35,920 nt of DNA from a virus (taxonomy: Duplodnaviria > Heunggongvirae > Uroviricota > Caudoviricetes), in the IMG/VR virus record IMGVR_UViG_649989946_000004; one strand, 5' to 3'. The position numbers and the translations under genes are program-made. Position 1 is the stretch's first letter. Every line of letters starts with the position of its first letter. Positions 1,749-33,740 of this stretch are shown here, one piece after another. Below the pieces are notes generated by a model. It did no database searches and had not been told where the DNA came from. It saw only the letters and a list, made by a program, of their open reading frames with translations.

Positions 1749-1795
1749 TTTTACACCTCAGTTGGACGATGTTGAAATTTGCTGCTTTGAGGCCA

Positions 1796-2014
1796 TCACA
1801 GTCCCCATTGTTTGTTCTTAAGTTCGATCTCCTCCTGGCAACTTGCACAAGTCCGACAACCCTGAACGGCCAGGCGTCTTCGTTCATCTATCGGATCGCC
1901 ACACTCACAACAATGAGTGGCAGATATAGCCTGGTGGTTCAGGCGGCGCATTTTTATTGCTGTGTTGCGCTGTAATTCTTCAATTCCTGATGCTGAATCA
2001 ATGATGTCTGCCAT
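1796..2014 (-). CDS. TraR/DksA-family C4 zinc-finger protein
   Basis: 72-aa ORF with CxxC...(17)...CxxC motif (CCECGDPIDERRRLAVQGCRTCASC) typical of phage TraR/DksA-like proteins. Confidence 0.7.
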   Translation of the reverse strand: MADIIDSASGIEELQRNTAIKMRRLNHQAISATHCCECGDPIDERRRLAVQGCRTCASCQEEIELKNKQWGL

Positions 2015-2111
2015 CTTTCATTAATCCCTGAATTGTTGGTTAATACGCTTGAGGGTGAATGCGAATAATAAAAAGGAGCCTGTAGCTCCATGATGATTTT
2101 GTTTTTCATGC

Positions 2112-2393
2112 TCACCGTTCCTTAAAGACGCCGTTTAACATGCCGATCGCCAGGCTTAAATGAGTCGGTGTGAATCCCATCAGCGTTACCGTTTCGCGGT
2201 GCTTCTTCAGTACGCTACGGCAAATATCATCGACGTTTTTATCCGGGAACTGCTGTCTGGCTTTTTTGATTTCAGAATTAGCCTGACGGGCAATACTGCG
2301 AAGGGCGTTTTCTTGCTGATGTGTCATTGAACAAGTCCCATGTCGGCAAGCATAAGCACACAGAATATGAAGCCCGCTGCCAGAAAAATGCAT
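2112..2393 (-). CDS. Hypothetical early-left protein (start uncertain; possible internal start at 2327)
   Basis: 93-aa ORF in tandem with neighbours; no obvious SD at either candidate start. Confidence 0.4.
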   Translation of the reverse strand: MHFSGSGLHILCAYACRHGTCSMTHQQENALRSIARQANSEIKKARQQFPDKNVDDICRSVLKKHRETVTLMGFTPTHLSLAIGMLNGVFKER

Positions 2394-2403
2394 TCAGTGG
2401 TTG

Positions 2404-2595
2404 TCATACCTGGTCTCTCTCATCTGCTTCTGCTTTCGCCACCATCATTTCCAGCTTTTGTGAAAGGGATGCGGCTAACGTATGAAATTCTTCGTCTGTT
2501 TCTACTGGTATTGGCACAAACCTGACTCCAATTTGAGCGAGGCTATGTGCCATCTCAATGCTCGTTCTTAACTCAACAGGAGATGCTTTGTGCAT
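2404..2595 (-). CDS. Small early protein, lambda orf63-position homologue
   Basis: 63-aa ORF with GGGGAG SD; size and position (two genes downstream of exo) match lambda orf63; acidic C-terminus. Confidence 0.55.
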   Translation of the reverse strand: MHKASPVELRTSIEMAHSLAQIGVRFVPIPVETDEEFHTLAASLSQKLEMMVAKAEADERDQV

Positions 2596-2750
2596 ACAGC
2601 TCCCCGTTTATTATTTATCTCCTCAGCCAGCCGCTGTGCTTTCAGGGGATTTCGGGTAACAGAAAGGCCGGGAAATACCCAGCCTCGCTTTGTAACGGAG
2701 TAGACGAAAGTGATCGCGCCTACCCGGATATTATCGTGAGGATGCTTCAT
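2568..2750 (-). CDS. Small early protein, lambda orf60a-position homologue
   Basis: 60-aa ORF starting with ATGA overlap on the exo stop codon; size and position match lambda orf60a. Confidence 0.5.
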
Positions 2751-3427
2751 CGCCATTGCTCCCCAAATACAAAACCAATTTCAGCCAGTGCCTCGTCCAT
2801 TTTTTCGATGAACTCCGGCACCATCTCGTCAAAACTCGCCATGTACTTTTCATCCTGCTCAATCACGACATAATGCAGGCCTTCACGCTTCATTCGTGGG
2901 TCATAGTTGGCAAAGTACCAGGCATCTTTTCGCGTCACCCACATGCTGTACTGCACCTGGGCCATGTAAGCCGATTTTATTGCCTCGAAACCACCGAGCC
3001 GGAATTTCATGAAATCCCGGGAGGTAAACGGGCATTTCAGTTCAAGGCCGTTGCCGTCACTGCATAAACCATCGGGAGAGCAGGCGGTGCGCATACTTTC
3101 GTCGCGATAGATGATCGGGGATTCAGTAACATTCACGCCGGAAGTAAACTCAAACAGGGCTCTGGCGTCGTTCTCGTACTGTTTTCCCCAGGCCAGTGCT
3201 TTAGCGTTAACTTCCGGAGCCACACCGGTGCAAACCTCGGCAAGCAGGGTGTGGAAGTAGGACATTTTCATGTCAGGCCACTTCTTTCCTGAGCGGGGCT
3301 TTGCTATCACGTTGTGAACTTCTGAAGCGGTGATGACGCCGAGCCGTAATTTGTGCCATGCATCATCCCCCTGTTCGACAGCTCTCACGTCGATCCCGGT
3401 ACGCTGCAGGATAATGTCCGGTGTCAT
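2747..3427 (-). CDS. exo: Lambda exonuclease (Red alpha)
   Basis: 226-aa ORF; translation ([69 protein letters not shown]...) is near-identical to lambda Exo as I recall it. Confidence 0.95.
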
Positions 3428-4209
3428 GCTGCCACCTTCTGCTCAGTGGCTTTCTGTTTCAGGAATCCGAGAGCTTTCACTGCTTCGGCCTGTGTCAGTT
3501 CTGACGATGCGCGAATGTCGCGGCGAAATATCTGGGAACAGAGCGGCAATAAGTCGTCATCCCATGTTTTATCCAGGGCAATCAGCAGAGTGTTAATCTC
3601 CTGCATGGTTTCATCGTTAACCGGAGTGATGTCGCGTTCCGGCTGACGTTCTGCAGTGTATGCGGTATTTTCGACAATGCGCTCGGCTTCATCCTTGTCA
3701 TAGATACCAGCAAATCCGAAGGCCAGACGGGCACACTGAATCATGGCTTTATGACGTAACATCCGTTTGGGATGCGACTGCCACGGCCCCGTGATTTCTC
3801 TGCCTTCGCGGGTTTTGAATGGTTCGCGGCGGCATTCATCCATCCACTCGGTAACGCAGATCGGATGATTGCGGTCCTTGCGGTAAATCCGGCATGTGCA
3901 GGATTCATTGTCCTGCTCAAAGTCCATACCATCAAACTGCTGGTTTTCATTGATGATGCGGGACCAGCCATCAACGCCCACCACCGGAACGATGCCGTTC
4001 TGCTTATCAGGGAAGGCGTAAATTTCTTTCGTCCACGGATTAAGGCCGTACTGGTTGGCGACGATCAACAATGCGATGAACTGCGCATCGCTGGCATCAC
4101 CTTTAAATGCCGTCTGGCGAAGAGTGGTGATCAGTTCCTGTGGGTCGACAGAATCCATGCCGACACGTTCAGCCAGCTTCCCTGCCAGCGTTGCGAGTGC
4201 TGTACTCAT
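3424..4209 (-). CDS. bet: Red beta single-strand annealing protein
   Basis: 261-aa ORF; near-identical to lambda Bet by recall; overlaps exo start (operon coupling). Confidence 0.95.
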
Positions 4210-4214
4210 CCGTT

Positions 4215-4511
4215 TTATACCTCTGAATCAATATCAACCTGGTGGTGAGCAATGGTTTCAACCATGTACCGGATGTGTTCTGCCATGCGCTCCTGAAACT
4301 CAACATCGTCATCAAACGCACGGGTAATGGCTTTTTTGCTGGCCCCGTGGCGTTGCAAATGATCGATGCATAGCGATTCAAACAGGTGCTGGGGCAGGCC
4401 TTTTTCCATGTCGTCTGCCAGTTCTGCCTCTTTCTCTTCACGGGCGATCTGCTGGTAGTGACGCGCCCAGCTCTGAGCCTCAAGACGATCCTGAATGTAA
4501 TAAGCGTTCAT
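4215..4511 (-). CDS. gam: Gam (RecBCD inhibitor), short GamS-length form
   Basis: 98-aa [24 protein letters not shown]...[10 protein letters not shown] matches lambda GamS; no in-frame upstream start for the long form. Confidence 0.9.
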
Positions 4512-4586
4512 GGCTGAACTCCTGAAAATGGCTGTGAAAATATCGCCCGCGAAATGCCAGGCTGATTAGGAAAACAGGAAAGGGGA

Positions 4587-4793
4587 TTAGTGATTGAGGC
4601 CGTTACCGCGTCCGTCGAGAAAAACTTCCACGAGCAAATCACGGGTATAAGTGCGCTCGATGCCGCGATGCAGATAAAGCCGTCCGCGTAAATTAGCTGA
4701 TGCAGTCCAGGTACCATCTTTGTGTTTGACCAGCATTCCTGGCATGACCGCACCGCGATTAACGGTCTGCGTTCCGTAATGTTGATGAACCAT
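4587..4793 (-). CDS. Hypothetical protein at the kil/N-equivalent position, first ORF downstream of PL (start ambiguous; frame stays open upstream to 4997)
   Basis: ATG at 4793 preceded by AGGAG SD gives a 68-aa product; the same frame stays open upstream to a TTG at 4997 and encodes an arginine-rich stretch (KRTRERRCDQ). Confidence 0.45.
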
Positions 4794-5069
4794 AAAAACT
4801 CCTGCCCGTAAGCTGGGCTGCTGAACATATAGAGACTTCTGCGCGTATTCAGGCGGTGGATGGCCGCCGGTTGTCATAACTAAGCCGCCTCGTTGAAGCG
4901 ACTGAGGTATAAAGTGTTGTGTTGATTTCAGCTGGTCACACCGACGTTCACGCGTCCGTTTCACCCCTCGCACTCCCCGAAGCCTGCTGAAATTCAAACT
5001 GCGGATCTAAGCGGTCATCGCCACGGTGAAACAGGTGGTTACCGTATCGTTGTGTCGTTGCGATGAATT

Positions 5070-5140
5070 TATTTAAAACTATAGTTGTTTTATCGTCAAC
5101 AACAAAAGTTGTTTTGTCGGTTGTTTTAAATATAACTGGT
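5070..5140. promoter_or_regulatory. Putative OL/PL operator-promoter region
   Basis: Clustered GTTGTT/AACAAC half-sites (e.g. GTTGTTTTATCGTCAACAAC) sharing the half-site of the OR palindrome at 6616-6636; positioned between the immunity operon terminator and leftward early genes. Confidence 0.4.
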
Positions 5141-5240
5141 TGTATTTAGGATGGATTTATTTTGTGACTTGCATCGCATAGCGATAACTGAAGTGAGGTG
5201 TGGTGGTTTTTTGGACGGTATGAGTTATGAGGGGGAGGAA

Positions 5241-5265
5241 AAGAAAACCCGGCGCGGTTGCCGGG
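5241..5265 (-). terminator. Rho-independent terminator ending the cI-lipoprotein transcript
   Basis: Minus-strand hairpin CCCGGCAACCGCGCCGGG followed by TTTTCTTTT. Confidence 0.55.
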
Positions 5266-5299
5266 TATGATTATCAGTCAGCCCAACCTGATTTCGAGT

Positions 5300-5653
5300 T
5301 TATTTGGGTTTCTGACATTGTGTATTTCTTAATCGTGTCATCGTTAAAAAGAATAGTAAGTTCTTTTTCGTACCGTTCGTTCCATTATGGAATAATCCAT
5401 AGAATGGAATAAAAGTGGTGCCATTAACTTTTACTTTTGCAAAGGCGTACTTCCAGATCTCGTTTCCACTGTCAGTATATGAAACAGCATCAGGAGAACC
5501 AAAGTAAGATTTAACCTCATTCTTGGTTGTTTTACCTTCCTGAAGTTTAGACTGGACACTAATTTCAGTTTCATTTTTGAGTTGCTGGTTGCCTGAAGAA
5601 GCACACCCAGCCAATACAGATGCCATCATGGCAGCGATTAGGATTTTTCTCAT
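5300..5653 (-). CDS. Prophage lipoprotein (signal peptide + lipobox LAGC; BamE/SmpA-OmlA-like motif) at the rexAB-equivalent position
   Basis: 117-aa ORF MRKILIAAMMASVLAGC...; motif G.SPD...G.EIWKY resembles BamE-like lipoproteins. C-terminus likely frame-shifted at the T5 run 5334-5338: corrected frame would read ...GTKKELTILFNDDTIKKYTMSETQINSKSGWAD and end at 5278, 12 nt before the terminator. Confidence 0.6.
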   Translation of the reverse strand: MRKILIAAMMASVLAGCASSGNQQLKNETEISVQSKLQEGKTTKNEVKSYFGSPDAVSYTDSGNEIWKYAFAKVKVNGTTFIPFYGLFHNGTNGTKKNLLFFLTMTRLRNTQCQKPK

Positions 5654-5882
5654 TTTATGTTTCCATTCATTATAATCAGAAACATCTTAACATAATGATT
5701 CGAAATAAAAACCGCTACGAGATAGGGGGACATTTTGCTGACAGTAGCAACAAATCTCAGCTAACAACGAGAATATTTACTGAAATATGCAAACAGATTT
5801 GGCGTTCTTATAGAGAATTTAGTGCAATATCTAATCCGAGTGGTATAAACCTTAACCTTCGCTCCCTTAAGTCGTAGATAAA

Positions 5883-6572
5883 TTAACCATGCTTCCTGTA
5901 CGTCTGCGGCATGCTTCCAATGACCTTACCGAATATGAACACCCGGTTCATCTCGTCTTTCTCGATCGGGTCCCACGGCGAGTAGCTCTTGTTATCAGAG
6001 ATAACCAGCAGCTTATCCTTCATCATTTGAAGACGTTTTACATGGGCAGTGTCGTCGTACAGAAACGCATAGATGCCATCACCGTCGAAAGATTTAACAG
6101 TGATATCAACGAACAGCAGGTCACCTGGTTCGATCGTCCCTGACATGCTGTCACCTCGCACGTTAATGATGCGGATATTTTCCGCCTTCCTGCCATCGAA
6201 CATGTGACGAGCATCGTCAAACGAGTACTCAACCGAGCGTAGAACTTCTACAAACTCACGGTTGATTACACCTGGCCCGGCACTGACTTCTATATCAAGA
6301 ACGTCAATTTTGAAGTATTTGGAATGGCTGACAGTTGATTGTATTGGTTGCACTGTACTGTCTGACATATTTCCAACGCCAGAAGATAACCATTCTGCGC
6401 GCACACCCAAAGCGTTCGCGATCTCCACGATTTTAGTTGTTTGGTTAGCTTTCCCTGTTTCGATTTTCTGAATAGCAGCTTGGCTAACCCCGACCAAATC
6501 CCCAAGCGCCTTTTGTGTAAGGCCTCGCGCTAATCTGGCTTCTTTAAGTCTTTCTGAGAGTGTTGTTTTCAT
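5883..6572 (-). CDS. cI: CI-type prophage repressor (HTH_XRE + S24 LexA-like peptidase domain)
   Basis: 229-aa ORF with N-terminal HTH (LTQKALGDLVGVSQAAIQKIETGK) and C-terminal autocleavage domain (GDSM ... HVKRL); ATG has no SD, consistent with a leaderless PRM-type transcript. Confidence 0.9.
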   Translation of the reverse strand: MKTTLSERLKEARLARGLTQKALGDLVGVSQAAIQKIETGKANQTTKIVEIANALGVRAEWLSSGVGNMSDSTVQPIQSTVSHSKYFKIDVLDIEVSAGPGVINREFVEVLRSVEYSFDDARHMFDGRKAENIRIINVRGDSMSGTIEPGDLLFVDITVKSFDGDGIYAFLYDDTAHVKRLQMMKDKLLVISDNKSYSPWDPIEKDEMNRVFIFGKVIGSMPQTYRKHG

Positions 6573-6676
6573 AGATCAAATGTACAACCAAGGTTTTATT
6601 TCATCAAACGAAAATGGTTGTTGACTAAAAACAACCATAGTTTTAATCTTGATTCGGATTAACCACGGAGGTTGTT
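6573..6676. promoter_or_regulatory. OR/PR/PRM immunity switch region
   Basis: 21-bp palindrome GGTTGTTGACTAAAAACAACC (6616-6636) overlapping a -35 TTGACT (6621-6626), 17-nt spacer, -10 TAATCT (6644-6649) pointing at cro; divergent cI start at 6572. Confidence 0.6.
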
Positions 6677-6907
6677 ATGAACCCAGCAATCAAAACAGCG
6701 ATCAATATCGTTGGTTCACAAAAGAAACTAGGCGATGCCTGCGAAGTTTCACAGCAGGCCGTCTATAAGTGGCTTCACAACAAAGCAAAGGTATCCCCTG
6801 AACATGTCGGCAGCATTGTTACGGCTACTGGTGGAGTTGTGAAGGCATACCAGATTCGCCCGGATCTTCCGAAGTTGTTTCCACACACCGAAAAGAACGC
6901 AGCTTAA
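6677..6907 (+). CDS. cro: Cro-like transcriptional regulator (YdaS-type HTH)
   Basis: 76-aa ORF with GGAGG SD, divergent from cI; HTH-like segment QKKLGDACEVSQQAVYKW. Confidence 0.75.
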   Translation: MNPAIKTAINIVGSQKKLGDACEVSQQAVYKWLHNKAKVSPEHVGSIVTATGGVVKAYQIRPDLPKLFPHTEKNAA

Positions 6908-6919
6908 ATTTCCATTTCA

Positions 6920-6933
6920 CGCTCTTTAACAAT
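6920..6933 (+). promoter_or_regulatory. boxA-like antitermination element (putative nutR boxA)
   Basis: Sequence CGCTCTTTAACAAT immediately downstream of cro matches the boxA consensus (CGCTCTTTA / rrn-type GCTCTTTAACAA); no obvious boxB hairpin follows. Confidence 0.35.
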
Positions 6934-6976
6934 AAGCAATCAACTTAACAGTCAATTCAAACTAAAGGAGTCAATT

Positions 6977-7516
6977 ATGCAACCACTTACATACCAACAG
7001 ACTAGCGGATTTATTCCGACTGCGGTGATAAATCGTTCTCAAACAAAACAAGCTCCAGGCCACGAAAAAATCCGTGATGCCGTCCGCGCCTGGTCGGCTG
7101 TAGATAATCAGGATGTCGTTGCCGCACTCATTGTGAATGAGTATCGGGAGCAGGGCGACGGCACCATCGATTTCCCTGATGATGTCAGCCGTGCACGCCA
7201 GAAGCTGTTCCGCTTCCTCGATAACAAATTCGATTCTGAAAAATACCGAAATAACGTGCGTGAACTGACCCCGGCAATTCTGGCGGTACTACCGCTGGAA
7301 TATCGCGGTTACCTGGTTGAGCAGGATAGCTTCATGACTCGGTTGGCTGAAATGGAAAAGGAACTCAGTGAGGCAAAACAGGCTGTCATTCTCAACGCAC
7401 CACGCCACCAGAAACTGAAGGAAATGAGTGAAGGTATTGTGTCGATGTTTCGTGTGGACCCGGATCTGGCTGGTCCATTAATGGCGATGGTGACCACCAT
7501 GCTGGGGGCAATATGA
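6977..7516 (+). CDS. YdaT-like protein (CII-position regulator)
   Basis: 179-aa ORF with AAGGAG SD; segment RELTPAILAVLPLEYRGYL resembles Rac prophage YdaT as recalled. Confidence 0.6.
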   Translation: MQPLTYQQTSGFIPTAVINRSQTKQAPGHEKIRDAVRAWSAVDNQDVVAALIVNEYREQGDGTIDFPDDVSRARQKLFRFLDNKFDSEKYRNNVRELTPAILAVLPLEYRGYLVEQDSFMTRLAEMEKELSEAKQAVILNAPRHQKLKEMSEGIVSMFRVDPDLAGPLMAMVTTMLGAI

Positions 7517-7602
7517 CAGGTTCAGAAATGGCGAAAGTCGGTCTGCGGGAACAGAACCGACTTTCAGGTGCAAATCGTAACACACTCATTGCGGGAGGAA
7601 TT

Positions 7603-8532
7603 ATGGCAAACACTGCTGAGATATTCAATTTTCCAGTGCCGGATGCGGCACAAAAGGAGCCGCGCGTGGCAGATCTCGATGATGGTTATACGCGCATTGC
7701 AAATGAGTTGCTGGAAGCTGTGATGCTGGCCGGATTAACACAGCACCAGCTTCTGGTCTTCCTGGCTGTCATGCGCAAAACATATGGCTTTAATAAAAAA
7801 CTGGATTGGGTGAGCAACGAGCAACTTTCCGAGTTGACCGGGATATTGCCGCACAAGTGTTCTGCTGCAAAAAGTGTTCTGGTAAAGCGTGGGATTTTTA
7901 TTCAGAGCGGGCGGAATATCGGCATTAATAATGTGGTCAGTGAATGGTCAACATTACCCGAATCAGGTAAGAAAAATAAAGTTTACCTGAAAGAGGTAAA
8001 TTTACCTGAATCAGGTAAGAAAAGTTTACCCAAATCAGGTAAAGGCACTTACCCGAATCAGGTAAACACAAAAGACAAACTAACAAAAGACAATATAAAA
8101 CCTTTTTCGTCCGAGAATTCTGGCGAATCCTCTGACCAACCAGAAAACGATCTTCCTGTGGAGAAACCAGATGCTGCAATTCAGAGCGGCAGCAGGTGGG
8201 GGACAGCAGAAGACCTGACCGCCGCAGAGTGGATGTTTGACATGGTGAAGACCATCGCGCCATCAGCCAGAAAACCGAATTTTGCAGGGTGGGCTAACGA
8301 TATCCGCCTGATGCGTGAACGTGACGGCCGTAACCACCGCGACATGTGCGTGCTGTTCCGCTGGGCATGCCAGGACAACTTCTGGTCCGGTAACGTGCTA
8401 AGTCCGGCCAAACTCCGCGACAAGTGGACCCAACTCGAAATCAACCGTAACAAGCAACAGGCTGGCGTGATAGCCGGAAAATCAAAACTCGACCTGACAA
8501 ACACTGACTGGATTTACGGGGTGGATTTATGA
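7603..8532 (+). CDS. O: Replication initiator O
   Basis: N-terminal domain (MANTAEIFNFPV...VADLDDGYTRIANELLEAVMLAGLTQHQLLVFLAVMRKTYGFNK) matches lambda O; GGAGG SD before ATG at 7603; iteron array inside the gene; stop overlaps P start. Confidence 0.9.
   Translation: MANTAEIFNFPVPDAAQKEPRVADLDDGYTRIANELLEAVMLAGLTQHQLLVFLAVMRKTYGFNKKLDWVSNEQLSELTGILPHKCSAAKSVLVKRGIFIQSGRNIGINNVVSEWSTLPESGKKNKVYLKEVNLPESGKKSLPKSGKGTYPNQVNTKDKLTKDNIKPFSSENSGESSDQPENDLPVEKPDAAIQSGSRWGTAEDLTAAEWMFDMVKTIAPSARKPNFAGWANDIRLMRERDGRNHRDMCVLFRWACQDNFWSGNVLSPAKLRDKWTQLEINRNKQQAGVIAGKSKLDLTNTDWIYGVDL
7954..8067. repeat. Origin iterons (ori) inside O
   Basis: Five ~19-bp direct repeats (TTACC(C/T)GAATCAGGTAA-like) within the O linker region, the arrangement of lambda ori. 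Confidence 0.8.
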
Positions 8533-9230
8533 AAAACATCGCCGCACAGATGGTTAACTTTGACCGTGAGCAGATGCGCCGGATCGCCAACAACATGCCG
8601 GAACAGTACGACGAAAAGCCGCAGGTACAACAGGTAGCGCAGATCATCAATGGTGTGTTCAGCCAGTTACTGGCAACTTTCCCGGCGAGCCTGGCTAACC
8701 GGGACCAGAACGAACTGAACGAAATCCGCCGCCAGTGGGTTCTGGCTTTCCGGGAAAACGGGATCACCACGATGGAACAGGTTAACGCAGGAATGCGCGT
8801 AGCCCGTCGGCAGAATCGACCATTCCTGCCATCACCCGGGCAGTTTGTTGCCTGGTGCCGGGAAGAAGCATCCGTTACCGCCGGGCTGCCAAACGCCAGC
8901 GAGCTGGTTGATATGGTTTACGAGTATTGCCGGAAACGTGGCCTGTATCCAGATGCAGAGTCTTATCCGTGGAAATCAAACGCGCACTACTGGCTGGTTA
9001 CCAACCTGTATCAGAACATGCGGGCCAATGCGCTTACTGATGCGGAATTACGGCGCAAGGCTGCCGATGAACTGACTTGTATGACCGCGCGAATTAACCG
9101 TGGTGAGGCGATACCTGAACCAGTAAAACAACTTCCTGTCATGGGCGGTAGACCTCTAAATCGTGCACAGGCTCTGGCGAAGATCGCAGAAATCAAAGCG
9201 AAGTTCGGACTGAAAGGAGCAACTGTATGA
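8529..9230 (+). CDS. P: Replication protein P (DnaB helicase loader)
   Basis: 233-aa ORF essentially identical to lambda P by recall (MKNIAAQMVNFDREQMRRIANNMPEQYDEKPQVQQ...). Confidence 0.95.
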   Translation: MKNIAAQMVNFDREQMRRIANNMPEQYDEKPQVQQVAQIINGVFSQLLATFPASLANRDQNELNEIRRQWVLAFRENGITTMEQVNAGMRVARRQNRPFLPSPGQFVAWCREEASVTAGLPNASELVDMVYEYCRKRGLYPDAESYPWKSNAHYWLVTNLYQNMRANALTDAELRRKAADELTCMTARINRGEAIPEPVKQLPVMGGRPLNRAQALAKIAEIKAKFGLKGATV

Positions 9231-9529
9231 CGGGCAAAGAGGCAATTATTCATTACCTGGGGACGCATAAGAGCTTCTGTGCGCAGGACGTTGCTGCGGT
9301 AACAGGCGCAACAGTAACCAGTATAAATCAGGCTGCGGCTAAAATGGCACGGGCAGGAATCTTGGTCGTTGATGGTAAGGTCTGGCGAACGGTGTATTAC
9401 CGGTTCGCTACCAGGGAAGAACGGGAAGGAAAGGTGAGCACGAATCTGATTTTCAAGGAGTGTCGCCAGAGTGCCGCGATGAAACGAGTGTTGGCAGTGT
9501 ATGGAGATATGAACTTAAACTTGCTGTGA
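9227..9529 (+). CDS. ren: Ren
   Basis: 100-aa ORF MTGKEAIIHYLGTH...KVWRTVYYRFATREEREGK matches lambda Ren. Confidence 0.85.
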   Translation: MTGKEAIIHYLGTHKSFCAQDVAAVTGATVTSINQAAAKMARAGILVVDGKVWRTVYYRFATREEREGKVSTNLIFKECRQSAAMKRVLAVYGDMNLNLL

Positions 9530-9777
9530 CGGTTTTCATCGGTAACACACCATGTAATCTAGCAGTCAGCTTAGAAATAGGAGCGGCAGTTAAAGATTTT
9601 TCAGTTAGTAGAAAATTACTGTTATTGCAGGGATCTAATCACCGGAGAGTCGTTCCATTTGTCTTATGATTACCTGAAGTCCGTTAGTTCGTTGGTAATC
9701 ACCGTTTTTGTTAGAGAAGTAAGCATCGCTGACAAAATATTCTCAACGATGCCTGCTTTATTGCTACTACAAATTAA

Positions 9778-11278
9778 TTAAATTGCATCTGCAAACTCTG
9801 GGGTTTTTCGCTCAGGTATAATTGATGAGTTGCTGTTGTCACTTTTTTTATTTTCATGATTACGAATAGCCAATGACTCATTAAAGTCTTTTGCGACTGC
9901 TGTCTCAATAAATTCAATTTCTGAATCAGAGTGTTTTTTAACAGCTTCTTTGATCTCATCCAGAGTAACATAGAAAAACTCTTTTCTACGATTTACAAGA
10001 TTGACTCTCTTTTTATCGAAGACATCATGTAGTTTTTTTCTAATGATGGAGCGTCCTCCGAATAAATCATGGCATGTACATCAAAAATAAAAGGAACAGA
10101 TGCATCACCGAGCTCATTTACACGGTCTTGCGGATCAAGACGTCGTGTCATGCCTATTTTATAAACATTCTCCCCAAAAGAACCTATGTTCGAAATAATA
10201 TAAACATGACCTTGTTTGGTTTGTTGTGCCATGGATAATGCTCTTTGATGCTTTGATTCAGCCTGCGACAAACTCTGTTCTAGTTCGGCAATGCGATTTT
10301 CGAGGCGCTGCTTCATGTCACCAGTAACTTTTTCCATTTCCTTTCTTGCAGCTTCAATTGCTTTTTTATAACGGCGCTCTTCTGCCTCTGCGTCTTGCAT
10401 GGCCTTTTCTATTTCTCGTTGTGCACGCTCCTCCTCTCTCATTTGTGCCCTTATTTCTGCCTGTTCTTCTTTTTCTTTCTGTTTTTGCTCACGATATTCA
10501 TGGGTAAGCCACAATTCCTCAAGTTTTTTATTGAGGTATTTAGTGTTTATATATATATGATTTTGCTCGTTTAGTTTATTTATGGCCTCAAATGCCTTTG
10601 TGATGCGTTCTTCCATTTTAGTGATGTTTTTCCACGTGCAATTGCTAATTGCAGCATCACATTCATTATTAAATGCTCTAGTAGTTAGCCTGATATTTCT
10701 GTCTGTCATTTTTTTACCCTCTGCTCGAGAGCCTTCAACAGTCCATTGGGTTGTACAATATACTGCGCCAGAGTGGGTTTTATCCCGCAGCATTAATTTC
10801 TGTTCATCCCTGATGGATTTTATTTTGTTTTTAAATTGCTCTGAATCTTCAAAATTAAAATGAGGTTCGTAAAATCCTAGTTCGGCTAGCTCAACATCTT
10901 CTGAATAAATAGAAATTTGCCTTACTAGTTTATCATATATTTCTTTCTTCTCTTTATAAGTTCTTCTTAGCTCTTGGATTTGTTTATTGATACCATCCAT
11001 TTTTTCAATGGTGTTTGTTAGTTCATTATTGGCATTTTCTTTTACTTTTAGGGATTCTTCTTTTATTATGGAGCATTCTTGCTCTGTTTTCTCAATAAGC
11101 TTCTTACATTCTTCTTCTACATTAAAATAATCTGCAAAGCGAGATTTGTATTCTTCATTTTTTTGATTGCTATCACTTAATTCTAATTGTATTTTTTGAT
11201 GCGTTTGATTGCAGCTATATAAAGAACAAGAACAACCAATAAAAATATGATTGCAAGTAATAGAGGAGTTTGAGTCAT
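9778..11278 (-). CDS. Membrane-anchored coiled-coil protein with C-terminal T5orf172/GIY-YIG-like domain (DUF4041-like architecture); reading frame interrupted twice at homopolymer runs
   Basis: ATG at 11278 encodes a TM helix (MTQTPLLLAIIFLLVVLVLYIAAIKRIKK) that stops unless the T6 run 11192-11197 is read as 7; main 435-aa ORF (9993-11300) has a long coiled coil and GHVYIISNIGSFGENVYKIGMTRRLDPQDRVNELGDASVPFIFDVHAMI; the domain continues in the -1 frame (LHDVFDKKRVNLVNRRKEFFYVTLDEIKEAVKK...) to a stop at 9778 if the T7 run 10043-10049 is read as 8. Confidence 0.65.
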
Positions 11279-11587
11279 TCGTGCTATTCCTTACGGACAA
11301 TTTAAGACGTTTTGTATTAAATCCTGTTCAATGTGTATGCGGGTGATTGCTACCGCTTACAATCTTCATAATTATCAGTTAGATAGACTCGCTAGTAAAT
11401 AATTTCATTTTTTGCAATATTCTTATTGAATATTTCAATTTATGAAATGAACTCTTTATCCTTTCAAGGCGAAAGGTTTCTTCTTCGGAAATATTTGCTC
11501 TCGTGTGACGTATAAAGACCTTTGATTTTCAAAAATCAGTAGGGAATAATATAGTTACTGTCGGCCTGAACACCCGGTGGTGGGGTT

Positions 11588-11692
11588 GCGCTAAACGGGG
11601 ACGTTTATGCGCACACACAATCCAAACTCTCATCTCCATTCACAGATGCAGAAATGCACCTACGATTTTTTACATTCGGTGTTTTACTTCGA
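11588..11692. repeat. Direct repeat copy A (~105 bp, ~90% identical to copy B)
   Basis: GCGCTAAACGGGGACGTTTATGCGCACA...TTCACAGATGCAGAAATGCACCT... recurs at 13521-13625. Confidence 0.8.
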
Positions 11693-11737
11693 CAGCCAGA
11701 ATTGGGAGTCTCTATTCGTCTGGCGGCTAAAGGTGAT

Positions 11738-11827
11738 ATGGAAATCGTTATGTTTTGGCCTGAGGTAGTTGTAACTGTTGTAGCAGCTATGGCTGTGATC
11801 ATCATGGTGTCCATTTACTGGGGTTGA
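11738..11827 (+). CDS. Small hydrophobic peptide ORF (29 aa), speculative
   Basis: AAGGTGA SD then ATG; MEIVMFWPEVVVTVVAAMAVIIMVSIYWG is a single predicted TM segment; lies just after repeat copy A. Confidence 0.25.
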   Translation: MEIVMFWPEVVVTVVAAMAVIIMVSIYWG

Positions 11828-11913
11828 CGACATGATTTATCCGGCGCTATATTCTGTGCGTTGCCGCAAAATCGGCACACGGGATTGGCGTCCCGGGATA
11901 CTACTCAACGCAT

Positions 11914-11934
11914 ACCGCGTTAAGCGGTTTTTTT
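11914..11934 (+). terminator. Possible weak rho-independent terminator
   Basis: Short stem ACCGC-GTTAA-GCGGT followed by T7. Confidence 0.3.
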
Positions 11935-12090
11935 GTGCGCTAAGCACGGCTATGCCCAAATTATGGTGGGCTGTGTGAGGGCTTCTTCGGAAGCGCCGGG
12001 TTTGAGTAGCCGGTTACGCCAACCTTACACAGTTCACCACCAGTCGATTGGCGTCGTTGGTGGTGATGGTTAACCTGATGAGGTGATACT

Positions 12091-12699
12091 ATGACTACTC
12101 AATTAGCATTCCACAAAACGACGTTTACCCCGATTTGCCACAATAACAGAATTTGGCTTACTGCCACTGAAGTTGGTTTAGCACTGGAATATGCGGACGA
12201 TAAAGCAGTTCAGCGCATTTACTCTCGGCACTCAGATGAATTCACAGATATGATGACAAGGGTGGTCAAAGTGACCACCCCTCGTGGAATGCAGGAGTCT
12301 CGAGTATTTAGCCTTCGCGGAGCCCATTTGATCGCCATGTTTGCTCGTACTCCTGTGGCCAAAGAATTCCGCCGCTGGGTTCTGGATATTCTCGATCGAG
12401 AAGTTCAACAATCCCCAATCACAAAACAATTCACTGATAACGAACTTTGCACACTCGCCTGGTTATGGCGAGCAAGTGATACGATGTTAACCGCCTGCCA
12501 GAACGTTACGCCCCTTCTTCAGGTCGCAGAGCATCGCGAAGCAGGTAGATTCACTTCAATCGAACAAGAATATCCTCGGATACTCAACAGGGCGCGAGAA
12601 ATCCTTGCCAGAGAAACGGCGCATGTAAAATTCCAACCGTGGCAGGATGATAAGTGGAGTCGTGTGTTACCATATTTCCGTCAGAATCTGTTGCAATAA
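12091..12699 (+). CDS. BRO-N / antirepressor-like protein
   Basis: 202-aa ORF with GAGGTGA SD; N-terminal pattern (LAFHKTTF...IWLTATEVGLALEY ... RVFSLRGAHLIAMFARTPVAKEFRRWVLDIL) fits the Bro-N / P22-antirepressor N-terminal fold. Confidence 0.6.
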   Translation: MTTQLAFHKTTFTPICHNNRIWLTATEVGLALEYADDKAVQRIYSRHSDEFTDMMTRVVKVTTPRGMQESRVFSLRGAHLIAMFARTPVAKEFRRWVLDILDREVQQSPITKQFTDNELCTLAWLWRASDTMLTACQNVTPLLQVAEHREAGRFTSIEQEYPRILNRAREILARETAHVKFQPWQDDKWSRVLPYFRQNLLQ

Positions 12700-12933
12700 A
12701 GTCACTAGTTAGAAATACTGCCAGCATTCTGCGATGACGGAAGTGCTGGCATTTTTTTGGTAATGTGCGAGTCCATTTCATAAAATACGGGTACTGGAAC
12801 TGGACGATATAATCTAAAAGATACCATTATCAGTAGCATTAAAATCGCTATGTGCCGATACGGATATAAATTATATTGATTGTTCACATACCTTATTGGA
12901 TATTACTGAGGGGTGTTTATATAAGGTGTAACG

Positions 12934-13443
12934 ATGATGTGGAACTTTGACAGTGCCGACTTAAGTGCAATAGCAGCAGGCATTTCTGCGTTTGGCACAT
13001 TAGCCGCAGCGGGGTCGGCGCTTGCAAGTTGGTGCACGTCAAAAAAAGCGCTGCAGCTACAAAATAGAGTTTACCTTTATGAGTCTTTAAAGGCTTGCGC
13101 TGAGAGAGCCAATTCATCAGCTAAAGATAAGCGCGGATCTGAATGGAGCGTTAATGATGCAGCGGATATCATCAGGTGCCTAGTACGGGCGATGGAGCTC
13201 ATCAAGCAGGATAGCCAGCAGAAAGAAGGTAATCAGGCATTAATGTTGAAACAGTACTTTGTTAATCTGCTAATAATGGAACTGTACGAGGAAGTTCATA
13301 ACGGTGATGCGGCTGATTCTGTTTTTAAAAGTACGGAACCTACACAAGTACTTGATAACTTATGGAGCAAATGGCAGGAGGCTATAGCTTTTTTTGATAT
13401 TTGGAATTACCCAGTTGCGACTGAGGAAGACTTGGCAGACTAA
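12934..13443 (+). CDS. Hypothetical membrane protein (N-terminal TM helix, cytoplasmic alpha-helical domain)
   Basis: 169-aa ORF with AGGTG SD, preceded by a ~230-bp AT-rich promoter-like region; hydrophobic segment LSAIAAGISAFGTLAAAGSALASW; no family recognised. Confidence 0.6.
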   Translation: MMWNFDSADLSAIAAGISAFGTLAAAGSALASWCTSKKALQLQNRVYLYESLKACAERANSSAKDKRGSEWSVNDAADIIRCLVRAMELIKQDSQQKEGNQALMLKQYFVNLLIMELYEEVHNGDAADSVFKSTEPTQVLDNLWSKWQEAIAFFDIWNYPVATEEDLAD

Positions 13444-13520
13444 TTTTCAGCACATTTGATTTCCAATAATCAACCAGCCATAATCATGCCATTGGAGCTT
13501 GAACAACTCCGGTGACTTCT

Positions 13521-13625
13521 GCGCTAAACGGGGACGTTTATGCGCACATACAATCCAAACTCTCTTCTCCCTTCACAGATGCAGAGATGCACCTGCGATT
13601 TTTTGCATCCAGCGTTTGACCTCTG
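13521..13625. repeat. Direct repeat copy B, immediately upstream of ninB
   Basis: See copy A; ends ~12 bp before the ninB GTG start. Confidence 0.8.
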
Positions 13626-13637
13626 CGGAGGTGAAGC

Positions 13638-14093
13638 GTGAACCTCCCACAAGACGGCATCAAATTGCATCGTGGTAACTTCACCGCTATCGGCCAGCAG
13701 ATCCAGCCTTATCTGGAGGAAGGCAAATGCTTTCGCATGGTGCTTAAACCGTGGCGTGAGAAACGCAGTCTTTCCCAGAATGCACTCAGCCACATGTGGT
13801 ACAGCGAAATCAGTGAATACCTCATCAGCAGGGGTAAAACGTTCGCCACTCCAGCTTGGGTAAAAGATGCTCTCAAACACACATATCTCGGTTATGAAAC
13901 CAAAGACCTGGTTGATGTCGTAACCGGTGAGATCACCACTATCCAGTCGTTACGCCATACCTCCGATCTTGATACCGGAGAGATGTATATCTTCCTGTGT
14001 AAGGTTGAAGCCTGGGCGGTGAATATTGGCTGCCACCTGACTATTCCGCAGAGCTGCGAGTTCCAGCTGCTCCGCGACAAGCAGGAGGCGTAA
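13638..14093 (+). CDS. ninB: NinB-family recombination protein
   Basis: 151-aa ORF, GTG start with GGAGG SD; motif [21 protein letters not shown] matches the NinB RSLDQN region. Confidence 0.75.
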
Positions 14094-14260
14094 TGGCTAC
14101 ACCGCTTATTCGTGTCATGAACGGACACATCTACAGAGTATCAAATCGTCGTAAGCGTAAGCCTGAGCTGAAGCCATCCGAAATACCAACTCTGCTCGGA
14201 TATACCGCTAGCCTGGTTGATAAAAAATGGTTGCGACTGGCAGCAAGGAGGAATCATGGC
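14093..14260 (+). CDS. ninE: NinE
   Basis: 55-aa [59 protein letters not shown] matches DLP12 NinE as recalled; TAATG overlap with ninB; below the ORF-track size cut-off. Confidence 0.75.
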
Positions 14261-14546
14261 TGATTTGAGAAAAGCAGCGCGTGGTCGGGAATGCCAGGTA
14301 AGAATCCCTGGCGTATGTAATGGCAATTCTGAAACGTCTGTACTGGCACATATCCGGCTGGCTGGATTGTGCGGTACCGGTATCAAACCGCCAGACCTGA
14401 TTGCCACCATTGCATGTTCTGCCTGCCACGACGAAATCGACCGCCGCACACATTTTGTCGATGCTGCATATGCAAAAGAATGCGCGCTGGAAGGTATGGC
14501 GAGAACACAGGTTATCTGGCTGAAAGAGGGGGTTATTAAGGCGTGA
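14256..14546 (+). CDS. ybcO: YbcO-like DUF1364 protein (putative nuclease)
   Basis: ATG with AGGAGG SD; [24 protein letters not shown]...[11 protein letters not shown] matches DLP12 YbcO as recalled. Confidence 0.8.
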
Positions 14547-14905
14547 ATACCTACAGTATCACATTACCCTGGCCTCCGAGCAATAATCGCTATTACCGCC
14601 ATAATCGCGGGCGCACGCACGTCAGTGCAGAGGGGCAGGCATACCGCGATAACGTCGCCCGAATCATTAAAAACGCAATGCTGGATATCGGCCTGGCTAT
14701 GCCTGTGAAAATCCGCATTGAGTGCCACATGCCGGATCGCCGTCGCCGTGACCTGGATAATCTGCAAAAAGCCGCTTTTGACGCACTCACTAAAGCAGGT
14801 TTCTGGCTGGATGATGCTCAGGTCGTTGATTACCGCGTTGTGAAGATGCCTGTTACCAAAGGTGGGAGGCTGGAACTGATCATCACCGAACTGGGGGATG
14901 AATGA
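14543..14905 (+). CDS. rusA: RusA Holliday-junction resolvase
   Basis: 120-aa [40 protein letters not shown]... matches DLP12 RusA. Confidence 0.9.
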
Positions 14906-15042
14906 TGTGTGAGTCATATATGGCAGAACTCCTTCGCCACCGCTGGGGGCGTCTGCGCTTATATCGTTTCCCCGGTTATGTTTTGACCGATTACCGAATA
15001 CTGAAGAATTACGCCAAAACACTGACAGGAGCAGGAGTATGA
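14902..15042 (+). CDS. ylcG: YlcG small protein
   Basis: 46-aa [49 protein letters not shown] overlapping the rusA stop; matches DLP12 YlcG as recalled. Confidence 0.7.
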
Positions 15043-15127
15043 AGTCAGAGATAACAATCAACTAATACTGTTTTGTTGATTTTTGCTTGTAATTGGCGTT
15101 CTGGTCTGAGTTTTGTGGAGTAAGTTG

Positions 15128-15511
15128 ATGCGTGATATTCAGATGGTTCTTGAGCGTTGGGGAGCGTGGGCGGCTAATAATCATGAAGATGTGACCTGGT
15201 CGTCCATTGCCGCCGGTTTTAAGGGATTAATTCCTTCAAAAGTAAAATCTCGCCCACAATGTTGTGACGATGACGCGATGATCATTTGCGGGTGCATGGC
15301 CCGTCTGAAAAAGAACAACAGCGATTTGCACGATTTATTAGTAGATTATTATGTAGTCGGTATGACATTCATGTCACTGGCAGGTAAGCATTGCTGCTCT
15401 GATGGTTATATCGGGAAAAGGTTACAGAAGGCTGAGGGCATAATTGAAGGGATGTTAATGGCATTAGATATCCGGTTAGAGATGGATATCGTTGTTAATA
15501 ACTCTAATTAA
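15128..15511 (+). CDS. quuD: Late-gene antiterminator Q (QuuD-type)
   Basis: 127 aa from ATG at 15128; [31 protein letters not shown]...[16 protein letters not shown] matches DLP12 QuuD. Confidence 0.85.
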
Positions 15512-15530
15512 TATGCCAATTGTTTACTAA

Positions 15531-15562
15531 AAATTATTAAAAATGGGGCGTTGAGACGCCCC
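15531..15562 (-). terminator. Rho-independent terminator, minus strand (porin gene)
   Basis: Hairpin GGGGCG-TTGAGA-CGCCCC followed on the minus strand by ATTTTTAATAATTTTT. Confidence 0.45.
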
Positions 15563-15652
15563 CAAAAATAAAGGGTAATATATAACAGAAGGTTTATATA
15601 GTTAGAAGCAAGGTTGTGCTTCTAAAGGAAGTGGCTTGAGGGAGCCACTTAT

Positions 15653-15690
15653 ATGTTGGGGAGGCAACGCCTCCCGCAACATATCTTTTT
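15653..15690 (+). terminator. tR'-like terminator downstream of Q/PR'
   Basis: Plus-strand hairpin ATGTTGGGGAGGC-AAC-GCCTCCCGCAACAT followed by CTTTTT, ~140 nt downstream of Q; PR'/qut expected in 15512-15650. Confidence 0.5.
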
Positions 15691-15700
15691 CGTAATCAGA

Positions 15701-16783
15701 TTAGAACTGGTAAACCATACCTACAGCAACGATATCATCGGTAGCAACGCCAGATGCTTTCGTGAAATCGCTCTTATCAATCAGGTTGATTTTGTAGTCA
15801 ACAAAAGTGGACATATTTTTGTTGAAGTAATAGGTTGCACCTACATCAATATATTCAACCAGGTCCTGATCACCCCAAGCACCCAAGTCTTTTCCTTTAG
15901 ATTGCAGGTAAGCAACGGACGGACGCAGACCGAAGTCGAACTGATATTGTGCAACTACTTCGAAGTTTTGTGCTTTGTTGGCAATATGGTTATTACCAAA
16001 AACAGTCATGTTCTGGGTTTCAGAATAGGTAGTAGCCAGATAGATGTTGTTCGCATCATATTTCAGACCAGCTGCCCATACTTCAGCATTTTGACCAGAT
16101 GCATTCAGGCTGTTGTTACCGTAGATAACCTGATTATTAGTGCGGTCAGATTTAGCATAGGTTGCACCTACGCCGAAACCTTCATACTCATAAGTAGTGG
16201 AGAAACCGAAACCATCACCATTAGCTTGAGTTACGTCAGTGCGGTCATTTTTACCCTGATACTGAGCAGCAAAGTTCAGACCATCAACCAGACCAAAGAA
16301 GTCGTTGTTACGATAAGTTGCAACACCTGTGGTGCGACCAGTCATGAATACATCTGTTTGGGTCCAGGTATCGCCACCGAATTCTGGCAGAACGTCGGTC
16401 CATGCACCAATATCGTATGCTACACCGTAGTTACGGCCATAATCGATGGAGCCGTAGTCACCGAATTTCAGGCCAGCGAAGGCAAGACGGGTTTTATCTT
16501 TGGAGGAACCTTGAGATTCAGCGCGGTTGCCTTTGAATTCATATTCCCACTGACCGAAACCAGTCAGTTGATCGTTGATTTGGGTTTCACCTTTGAAGCC
16601 AAGACGGGCATAAGTAGTATCACCATCATCTGCATCATTAGAGGAGAAGTAGTGCTTAGCATTAACTTTCCCGTACAGATCCAGCTTGTTACTGTCTTTA
16701 TTATAAATTTCAGCTGCCTGAGCAGACATCGCCATCAGTACTGATGCAGCTACAGCAGAAATTGCCACTGTTAATTTTTTCAT
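15701..16783 (-). CDS. nmpC: General porin, OmpC/OmpF family (NmpC-like), apparently intact
   Basis: Signal peptide [23 protein letters not shown] then AEIYNKD... and C-terminal ...VGMVYQF typical of enterobacterial porins; located between Q and the lysis cassette as in DLP12. Confidence 0.9.
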
Positions 16784-17210
16784 CGTGAGCCCTTTTTTTG
16801 AACTATTATTAAAAAATGATGTCACTGCGCGATAAATATTCATCTAATCAATGTGATTATTTCAAGATGTAAGTTTTGGTTTCTCGTTTGATTTGTGAAG
16901 TAGATCTCTATTTTTATCTGAACTTTTTTCTATCGAATCCTATTCATGGCTCTTGGCTGAATAAAAATAAATCTATTAGCCAATTTATATTAACGGCTGT
17001 CATTTATAAGTGCTCTATAATTTGAAGGTTCAATTTAAACCGGCTAAAAATAACGCTGGAAATTATTTGTTGGTTATTTGTTGATATTTGCTTATGTATT
17101 TGTAGTGGTGTTTTCAATACTCGGTAGCATTCTCGCAAATATCATTTAGTGGTTTACGTACGTAAAAAATTGGTTATGCTGTTAAGAGTGGTTACTTCGT
17201 CACACAGCTT

Positions 17211-17243
17211 AAACCCGCCGTCGAGCGGGTTTTTCCATTTTTT
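17211..17243 (+). terminator. Rho-independent terminator upstream of the lysis cassette
   Basis: AAACCCGC-CGTCGA-GCGGGTTT followed by TTCCATTTTTT. Confidence 0.5.
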
Positions 17244-17355
17244 GAGTCTCGATATTAGCTGATAACCCAATACCTGAGTTATTCACTGACTCCGAGTCTG
17301 TTACGTTTCGTAGTATTCCCTCAATTTACACCCGCTTTGTCTGCGAGGTGGGGTT

Positions 17356-17571
17356 ATGAAATCCATGGATAAGTTAACAACGGGTGTCGCCTATGGCACC
17401 TCAGCAGGTAGTGCCGGGTACTGGTTTTTACAGCTGCTAGATAAAGTCACGCCCTCACAGTGGGCGGCAATTGGAGTGCTGGGTAGCCTGGTATTTGGCC
17501 TGCTGACGTACCTGACAAACCTTTATTTCAAGATTAAAGAAGATAAGCGCAAGGCTGCGAGAGGTGGATAA
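17356..17571 (+). CDS. essD: Holin (EssD-type) with dual-start motif
   Basis: 71-aa [17 protein letters not shown]... with Met1-Lys2-Ser3-Met4 and TM segments; matches DLP12 EssD. Confidence 0.85.
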
Positions 17572-18068
17572 TGCCTCCATCATTACGAAAAGCTGTTGCT
17601 GCTGCTATTGGTGGCGGGGCTATTGCTATAGCATCTGTGTTAATCACTGGCCCAAGTGGTAACGATGGTCTGGAAGGTGTGAGACATAATCCTTACAAAG
17701 ACATAGTTGGTGTATGGACTGTATGTTACGGGCATACAGGAAAAGACATCATTCCCGGTAAAACGTATACCGAAGCAGAGTGCAAAGCCCTCCTGAATAA
17801 AGACCTTGCCACGGTCGCCAGACAAATTAACCCGTACATCAAAGTCGATATACCGGAAACAACGCGCGGCGCTCTTTACTCGTTCGTCTACAACGTGGGT
17901 GCTGGCAATTTCAGAACATCGACGCTTCTTCGCAAAATAAACCAGGGCGATATCAAAGGCGCATGTGATCAGCTACGTCGCTGGACATACGCTGGAGGTA
18001 AGCAATGGAAAGGACTGATGACTCGTCGTGAGATTGAGCGTGAAGTCTGTTTGTGGGGGCAGCAATGA
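17571..18068 (+). CDS. rrrD: SAR endolysin (phage lysozyme, RrrD/P21 R-type)
   Basis: 165-aa ORF with N-terminal signal-anchor-release segment ([21 protein letters not shown]) and lysozyme core; TAATG-coupled to holin. Confidence 0.85.
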
Positions 18069-18263
18069 GCAGAGTAACCGCGATTATCTCCGCTCTGATT
18101 ATCTGCATCATCGTCTGCCTGTTATGGGCTGTTAATCATTACCGTGATAACGCCATCGCCTACAAAGAGCAGCGCGACAAAGCCGCATCCACTATCGCTG
18201 ATATGCAGAAGCGTCAACGTGATGTAGCAGAACTCGACGCCAGATACACAAAGGAGCTTGCTG

Positions 18264-18430
18264 ATGCTAACGCGACTATCGAAAGTCTTCGTGCTGATGT
18301 TTCTGCTGGGCGTAAGTGGCTGCGCGTCAAAGCTGTCTGTCCAGACATGCATAAAATCACCGCCGCCTCCGGCGTGGATGATGGCACCAGCCCCAGACTT
18401 ACTGACACCGCTCAACGGGATTATTTCACC
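18264..18430 (+). pseudogene. rzoD: Rz1 outer-membrane lipoprotein spanin, embedded in Rz (+1 frame), also cut by IS2; remainder 19767-19800
   Basis: AAGGAG SD then [23 protein letters not shown]...[24 protein letters not shown] (lipobox, proline-rich), interrupted at 18430. Confidence 0.8.
18426..18430. repeat. IS2 target-site duplication, left copy (TCACC)
   Basis: TCACC directly flanks both IS2 ends (18426-18430 and 19762-19766). Confidence 0.8.
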
Positions 18431-18441
18431 TGGATTTGCCC

Positions 18442-19347
18442 CTATATTTCCAGACATCTGTTATCACTTAACCCATTACAAGCCCGCTGCCGCAGATATT
18501 CCCGTGGCGAGCGATAACCCAGCGCACTATGCGGATGCCATTCGTTATAATGCTCGAACGCCTCTGCAAGGTTCTTTGCTGCCGTTAACCCGTCTGGTTT
18601 GGGCATGATACTGATGTAGTCACGCTTTATCGTTTTCACGAAGCTCTCTGCTATTCCGTTACTCTCCGGACTCCGCACCGCCGTGTTCTTCGGTTCAAGT
18701 CCCAACATCCGGGCGAACTGGCGTGTTTCATTAGCCCGGTAGCATGAACCATTATCCGTCAGCCACTCCACTGGAGACGACGGAAGATCGTTGCCGAAGC
18801 GGCGTTCCACCGCTCCCAGCATGACGTCCTGTACTGTTTCACTGTTGAAGCCGCCGGTAGTGACCGCCCAGTGCAGTGCCTCACGATCACAGCAGTCCAG
18901 CGCGAACGTGACACGCAGTCTCTCTCCGTTATCACAGCAGAACTCGAACCCGTCAGAGCACCATCGCTGATTGCTTTCTTTCACGGCCACTCTGCCTGTA
19001 TGTGCCCGTTTCGATGGCGGTACAGCAGGTTTTCGCTCAAGCAACAGCGCATTCTGGCGCATGATCCGGTAAACACGTTTGGCATTGATCGCAGGCATAC
19101 CATCAAGTTCTGCCTGTCTGCGAAGCAGCGCCCATACCCGACGATAACCATACGTGGGCAGCTCTCCGATAACATGGTGTATACGGAGAAGCACATCCGT
19201 ATCATCAGTGTGACGACTGCGGCGGCCATCCATCCAGTCATCGGTTCGTCTGAGAATGACGTGCAACTGCGCACGCGACACCCGGAGACAACGGCTGACT
19301 AAGCTTACTCCCCATCCCCGGGCAATAAGGGCGCGTGCGCTATCCAC
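18442..19347 (-). CDS. insD: IS2 transposase OrfB (InsD)
   Basis: 301-aa ORF with DDE-type integrase core; matches IS2 InsD. Confidence 0.9.
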
Positions 19348-23428: not shown

Positions 23429-23468
23429 CTGATGATGTTAACCCCTGGCTGACTTCCGGAGGATGGTT

Positions 23469-33731: not shown

Positions 33732-33740
33732 GAGGCTCTG

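Follow-up and report, generated by a model that had tools for sequence, protein, structure and literature searches.

SNIPE and other defences acting at genome injection

The defence gene PD-lambda-1 was isolated from Escherichia coli ECOR26 (RCP76574.1, a 1503-bp gene encoding 500 amino acids; Vassallo et al. 2022, PMC9519451), and the HHpred table of that study places DUF4041 at residues 197-252, T5orf172 at 357-448 and MUG113 at 373-449 of the protein. PD-lambda-1 was renamed SNIPE by Saxton et al. (Nature 2026, PMC13190303), who dissected its mechanism. SNIPE is described there as a GIY-YIG nuclease of the inner membrane by which siphovirus DNA is cut in the course of injection, with support for the GIY-YIG fold reported from AlphaFold and HHpred. 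The DUF4041 domain is reported to be needed for defence, to mediate DNA binding and to contact the tape measure protein, which is also recovered in SNIPE crosslinking; DUF4041 mutations that boost defence against phage Bas14 were escaped through tape-measure mutations (PMC13190303). According to the same source, adsorption is unaffected by SNIPE and the appearance of injected lambda genomes is down ca. 30-fold. The defence is strongest against ManYZ-dependent phages, when most BASEL siphoviruses encounter a weaker, ManYZ-independent protection, and no protection is reported against myoviruses or podoviruses (PMC13190303).

In the discussion of the same article, SNIPE is compared with Zorya, Kiwa and the classical superinfection-exclusion proteins, which likewise operate at the inner membrane while the genome is being injected. 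SNIPE resembles the superinfection-exclusion genes in being encoded on a prophage and in protecting the lysogen. However, the proteins are unrelated. Zorya and Kiwa are multi-gene systems that are thought to sense envelope perturbation, whereas SNIPE is a single polypeptide, and the classical superinfection-exclusion proteins block entry without degrading the DNA. SNIPE differs from all of these in that it cleaves the DNA itself, which is found via ManYZ and the tape measure protein.

The reverse-strand gene and its reading frame

The window, i.e. the whole 35,920-nt stretch of viral DNA analysed here (IMG/VR record IMGVR_UViG_649989946_000004, Caudoviricetes), carries on its minus strand a gene at 11278..9778, with the ATG at 11278 and the stop codon ending at 9778. 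The gene covers 1501 nt in the window. Its frame is broken at two points and no more, and at both of them an A-run on the gene strand is one base short.

Frameshift site 1: 11192..11197, minus strand, A6 in the window, A7 in all intact copies
Frameshift site 2: 10033..10039, minus strand, A7 in the window, A8 in intact copies

Restoration of one A at both sites resulted in a single uninterrupted ORF of 500 codons (1503 nt). Without repair of site 1, translation from the ATG at 11278 reads MTQTPLLLAIIFLLVVLVLYIAAIKRIKKYN and then meets a stop, ending after 31 codons, just past the transmembrane (TM) helix. The gene body is found as a 435-codon ORF (11300..9993) in another frame, and the last 65 codons (9971..9774) are in a third frame. 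Site 2 overlaps codons E414-K415-K416, and only one codon beyond the catalytic Glu is still in frame: unrepaired, E414-K415 are kept and are followed by N-Y-M. An uninterrupted frame joining the TM helix, DUF4041 and the nuclease domain is therefore absent from the window as given, and the sequence encodes no intact protein, since site 1 separates the TM helix from the body and site 2 truncates the nuclease domain.

Domain architecture of the repaired protein

Profile searches (Pfam) and the hydropathy plot divided the repaired protein into an N-terminal membrane segment, a central domain and a C-terminal nuclease domain.

TM helix: 11207..11266, minus strand, single and N-terminal, residues ~5-24 (Kyte-Doolittle)
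DUF4041 domain: 10524..10688, minus strand, residues 198-252 (Pfam PF13250, E = 1.2e-19)
T5orf172/MUG113 (GIY-YIG-type) nuclease domain: 9934..10211, minus strand, residues 357-449 (Pfam)

The hydrophobic segment LLLAIIFLLVVLVLYIAAI at residues ~5-24 reached a Kyte-Doolittle 19-residue mean of 3.37 and was the sole stretch above 1.6. T5orf172 (PF10544, residues 357-449, E = 6.9e-17) and MUG113 (PF13455, residues 373-449, E = 7e-19) both scored well over their gathering thresholds, and we take the two Pfam families to be members of the GIY-YIG clan. In the repaired protein the elements of the GIY-YIG signature follow each other in the order GHVYII (GIY-like), VYKIGMT (YIG), RR and E414. The E414 codon is located at 10038-10040, and in the window as given the nuclease domain is split by site 2.

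The searches against NCBIfam returned no specific family, the hits being weak coiled-coil noise far under the cut-offs (an archaeal SMC-related family, E = 6e-4, and a MazE fragment), and the C-terminal 152 residues had no relative in a PDB sequence search (best E = 0.94, a LysM kinase). Other T5orf172/GIY-YIG defence candidates, represented by PDC-S57 in PADLOC, share the C-terminal nuclease domain (E = 1.7e-18 and 9.4e-11, residues ~351-476) but do not resemble the protein in its TM, helical or DUF4041 parts.

Much of this architecture had been anticipated in a sequence-only reading of the gene, which had proposed a frame of about 500 codons with two homopolymer breaks and an N-terminal TM helix. 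Its coordinates were exact, with 500 codons obtained after the addition of two A's, the Kyte-Doolittle mean agrees with the helix, and the C-terminal motifs that it quoted are all present in the repaired protein. The profile search that it had set as a test for a T5orf172/GIY-YIG domain returned T5orf172. The coiled coil of about 350 residues held in part: long charged helices are present, but the DUF4041 domain at 198-252 lies within the region.

Identity with SNIPE/PD-lambda-1

Judged by its sequence, the repaired gene is SNIPE, first named PD-lambda-1, hence an already characterised gene and not an undescribed one. The PADLOC PD-Lambda-1 model PDLC03976 matched the protein end to end (E = 1.9e-198, residues 1-485 of the 491-position model), and a second PD-Lambda-1 model, PDLC03977, gave E = 7e-195. 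The repaired protein was 100% identical to RefSeq WP_000195116.1, and also to the coding sequence annotated "PD-lambda-1" in Escherichia phage PhiR26_1 (PV340555.1). On the nucleotide level, besides the two absent A's (A6 for A7 and A7 for A8), the window differs from PhiR26_1 by one synonymous change at 10557 (T in the window, C in PhiR26_1), and over the 322 bp upstream of the ATG the two sequences agree in full. From the naming convention in PMC13190303 (PhiR68.2, PhiR40.1 etc.), we infer that PhiR26_1 derives from ECOR26. Gene length and domain coordinates agree with those published for PD-lambda-1, i.e. for RCP76574.1 of ECOR26.

The residues and primers of the SNIPE article tie the gene to the published protein as well. 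The repaired protein has all nine residues named there (N250, L253, W257, E264, K305, I308, T319, E223 and E414) at the stated positions, for which the chance from composition alone is about 3e-11. Seventeen of the primers match the gene or its immediate flanks. Primer oDS47, with the annealing part AAACGCATCAAAAAAATAC..., reads ...CATCAAAAAAATAC (A7), and its full 39-nt match is obtained only with the repaired A7 version of site 1. The E414A primer pair (oDS93 geometry) implies eight bases between TTAG and CTAC (GAA AAA AAA), when the window has seven.

The exact protein is present on at least 1000 public contigs. The gene was found in 132 of the 5426 complete E. coli genomes, every time on the chromosome, and the RefSeq labels among those copies are "DUF4041 domain-containing protein" or "SNIPE associated domain-containing protein".

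The sequence-only reading had taken the gene for an undescribed one, outside the named defence systems. This was mistaken, as the gene is PD-lambda-1 (PMC9519451), i.e. SNIPE (PMC13190303), and a PADLOC model for it exists. Its proposal of a prophage-borne, membrane-anchored, nuclease-like defence gene was sound; a genuine defence gene and the logic of its domains had been recognised correctly from the raw sequence. The discovery value of this copy is small, since the system has a name, is covered by PADLOC and RefSeq annotation and has been explained mechanistically.

Origin of the two frameshifts

The two frameshifts are very probably one-base under-calls of A-runs that arose in sequencing or assembly. 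The evidence comes from a comparison of single-base indels between the window and three near-identical prophage references.

LR-25 prophage: window 1835-18323, 98.0% identity
PhiR26_1: window 1519-18430, 98.1% identity
GDSC2BY4G prophage: window 20660-35920, 99.8% identity

The indel tally was limited to well-aligned sequence, with a few patchy, highly diverged stretches (porin, Rz) left out. In comparison with the three references, the window had 10 contractions of A/T runs and no expansions, the contractions being located at 2069, 5363, 10032, 11191, 12751, 16792, 23408, 32162, 32470 and 33847. The share of contracted runs depended steeply on the length of the run in the reference.

Reference run length 5: contracted in the window 1/100
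Reference run length 6: contracted in the window 3/36
Reference run length 7: contracted in the window 3/10
Reference run length 8: contracted in the window 3/3

Runs of 8 or longer are found nowhere in the window. Besides SNIPE, the contractions break the genes for the BamE-like lipoprotein (5363), the large terminase (23408), the tape measure protein (twice, 32162 and 32470) and gpL (33847). The site 1 deletion was present in none of the 130 complete E. coli genomes matching that stretch, and the site 2 deletion in none of the 131 matching the other. The artefact call is made because the contractions are one-directional and length-dependent, which is the pattern of under-counting in base calling, and because the two deletions are absent in ca. 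130 genomes. That the SNIPE gene was hit twice follows from its intact form, which has five A-runs of at least 7 in 1.5 kb. Real slippage mutations likewise favour long A/T runs, which counts against the artefact reading.

If the frameshifts were real, SNIPE would be a dead pseudogene in a decaying prophage with broken terminase, tape-measure and gpL genes and an inserted IS2. This is improbable, even though the gene as given has two disabling frameshifts, several essential late genes are frameshifted, an IS2 is situated in the lysis module, and truncated or frameshifted alleles are met elsewhere, together with IS-interrupted copies in complete genomes (H1, H23, H24). Against decay, all ten single-base indels are contractions of A/T homopolymers, with all three of the length-8 runs affected, and indels that are confined to homopolymers and depend on their length are characteristic of base-calling error rather than independent mutations. 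The substitution divergence is also tiny (25 mismatches in 15.3 kb, with the one synonymous change in the SNIPE gene), and neither deletion was seen among the ca. 130 other genomes.

It is more doubtful still that the A-run deficits are genuine in the sense that SNIPE is naturally switched off, with the A7/A8 tracts serving as a slippage on/off switch or as a mutational hotspot. If true, a SNIPE switch could trade immunity against a cost, e.g. the toxicity of the nuclease when it lacks the TM helix. A contingency (phase-variation) switch by slipped-strand mispairing at A7/A8, of which the window would represent the OFF state, is very hard to credit. It could be surmised from the unusual richness of the intact gene in long A-runs and from the position of both breaks at such runs. 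However, the OFF length was met in 0/130 complete genomes at site 1 and in 0/131 at site 2, two simultaneous OFF events in one gene would be unexpected for a switch, and identical contractions are spread over the window, both in unrelated genes and in runs between genes. Runs of 7-8 are also short for efficient phase variation in E. coli.

Under-calling remains the preferred explanation, under which the lysogen probably has an intact, active gene. Since homopolymers in the window are systematically under-called, all calls of pseudogenes or frameshifts within it deserve distrust, be it in SNIPE or in the terminase, tape measure, gpL and lipoprotein genes.

Allelic variation of SNIPE is evident in public sequences. 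In other public assemblies, SNIPE alleles are frameshifted at different positions (P0006, P0008, P0013), as in P0006 at the A7 run that corresponds to window 9843-9849. The SNIPE protein cluster (P0006, P0008, P0013, P0009, P0011) also includes N-terminally truncated calls starting at M94. In the interrupted copies found in complete genomes, the inserted elements are IS3 and IS5.

Predicted mode of action

In the identical protein, PhoA-LacZalpha topology mapping placed the N terminus in the periplasm and the remainder in the cytoplasm (PMC13190303). Accordingly oriented, the N-terminal helix of the protein encoded in the window would anchor it in the inner membrane. DUF4041 and the GIY-YIG nuclease would lie on the cytoplasmic side, and the anchoring would keep the nuclease off the chromosome. 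The N-terminal region is expected to associate with the ManYZ mannose permease, the DNA entry route of lambda-like phages, and the nuclease, with E414 as the catalytic residue, would then cut the phage DNA on injection and leave DNA already inside the cell unattacked. The infected cell would survive, and the system would represent direct defence rather than abortive infection. This SNIPE model was demonstrated by experiment on the identical protein (PMC13190303), and as far as a sequence can speak to it, the window holds nothing at odds with it.

A different reading would make the protein an abortive-infection or toxin effector, i.e. a membrane-tethered nuclease that infection sets free or activates, with the death of the host cell as the result. 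SNIPE without the TM helix is indeed reported to be highly toxic and to bind and cut the nucleoid, and E414A abolishes toxicity, defence and DNA cleavage (PMC13190303). In addition, many T5orf172/GIY-YIG proteins are found in other defence contexts, as the partial matches to PDC-S57 in PADLOC illustrate. Nevertheless, the reading has next to no likelihood in view of the data published on the identical protein: infected cells bearing SNIPE survive and keep growing to confluence, unlike those of the PD-lambda-3 abortive-infection control, 32P-labelled phage DNA is degraded to a smear during injection, and induced prophage and transformed plasmids are spared (all in PMC13190303). The sequence-only reading had left the type of effector between superinfection exclusion and abortive infection; the former idea came close to the published destruction of DNA at entry, and the latter is contradicted by the survival of infected cells in the same report. 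SNIPE is published as a direct defence that cleaves incoming DNA.

Genomic setting of the SNIPE gene

In all likelihood, the locus is a single-gene SNIPE system with artefactual frameshifts, an AT-rich moron in reverse orientation that a lambdoid prophage of the PhiR26_1 type carries between its ren and nin genes. Two neighbours delimit the gene.

ren: 9227..9529, plus strand, left boundary of the insertion slot, converging on the SNIPE gene
Rha/P22AR C-terminal-domain gene: 12091..12699, plus strand, neighbour on the upstream side of SNIPE, outside the defence system

The GC content was 0.285-0.40 across 9600-11600 vs 0.50-0.56 in O/P/ren, and the SNIPE gene runs against the direction of O, P, ren and the genes downstream. 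Phage lambda has only 73 bp between ren (40280-40570) and Nin146/ninB (40644-41084), and the slot is thus empty there. The AT-rich segment, the opposite strand and the vacancy of the slot in lambda had all been read correctly from the raw sequence.

The gene order in the left 18 kb is that of PhiR26_1, i.e. int, exo/bet/gam, kil, the lipoprotein gene, cI, cro, a YdaT-domain gene (in the cII position), O, P, ren and SNIPE (reverse), followed by Rha/P22AR, a 169-aa hypothetical, ybcN, ninE, ybcO, rusA, ylcG, Q, the porin gene and the lysis genes S/R/Rz. The related prophage of strain LR-25 adjoins tRNA-Arg and intD. In PADLOC searches, six neighbours (Rha/P22AR, the 169-aa hypothetical, the BamE-like lipoprotein, the YdaT-domain protein, YbcN and Ren) had no match, which gives no sign of partner genes for SNIPE at this locus. 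Strain WP2-S18-ESBL-07 has kept SNIPE directly beside the ybcN region, with the Rha module absent. Both the lack of PADLOC matches among the neighbours and the absence of the Rha module in that strain agree with a single-gene system.

The published defence clones relied on the native promoter (PMC13190303). Upstream of the gene, one candidate was picked by its match to the consensus.

Candidate sigma-70 promoter: 11371..11399, minus strand, TTTACT, 17 nt spacer, GATAAT, ending ~90 nt upstream of the ATG (consensus match only)

The promoter and terminator scan found 12 elements vs 7.1 +/- 3.1 expected from shuffles, which are consensus-level candidates without enrichment, and it returned no minus-strand terminator downstream of the SNIPE gene.

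A direct repeat of 89 bp (93% identity, 11587-11675 and 13520-13608) brackets the Rha/P22AR and 169-aa hypothetical genes, and LR-25 and PhiR26_1 have this repeat pair too. Together with the state in WP2-S18-ESBL-07, the arrangement suggests that the Rha/P22AR module was gained or lost through recombination between the repeats.

The prophage is a mosaic. Its early region (1519-18430) is ca. 98% identical to PhiR26_1 and LR-25, when the head and tail module (20660-35920), with a ClpP-protease/major-capsid fusion and a tape measure protein of ~1021 aa, is 99.8% identical to a different prophage lineage. This late-gene module differs from those of PhiR26_1 and LR-25, and it has no relationship to the late genes of LR-25, which are lambda-like. 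The mosaic structure implies that the SNIPE cassette travels with the early region, independent of the tape-measure type of its carrier, and the window documents a combination in which the cassette occupies the ren-nin slot of a lambdoid early region and the attached tail and tape-measure module is unlike that of PhiR26_1.

The lysis module contains an IS2 element of 1331 bp (18431-19761) between the lysozyme and Rz-type genes. The element is 99.85% identical to the IS2 of GDSC2BY4G and is absent from the lysis module of two related prophages (H63 and H64). Just downstream of cI, roughly at the position of lambda rexAB, a minus-strand gene (5275-5655) encodes the putative BamE-like lipoprotein, which could be another moron expressed in the lysogen. 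The prophage porin gene (15701-16843, minus strand, annotated as OmpC/OmpD-like) shows patchy, indel-rich divergence from PhiR26_1 between near-identical flanks, which is consistent with surface-loop diversification.
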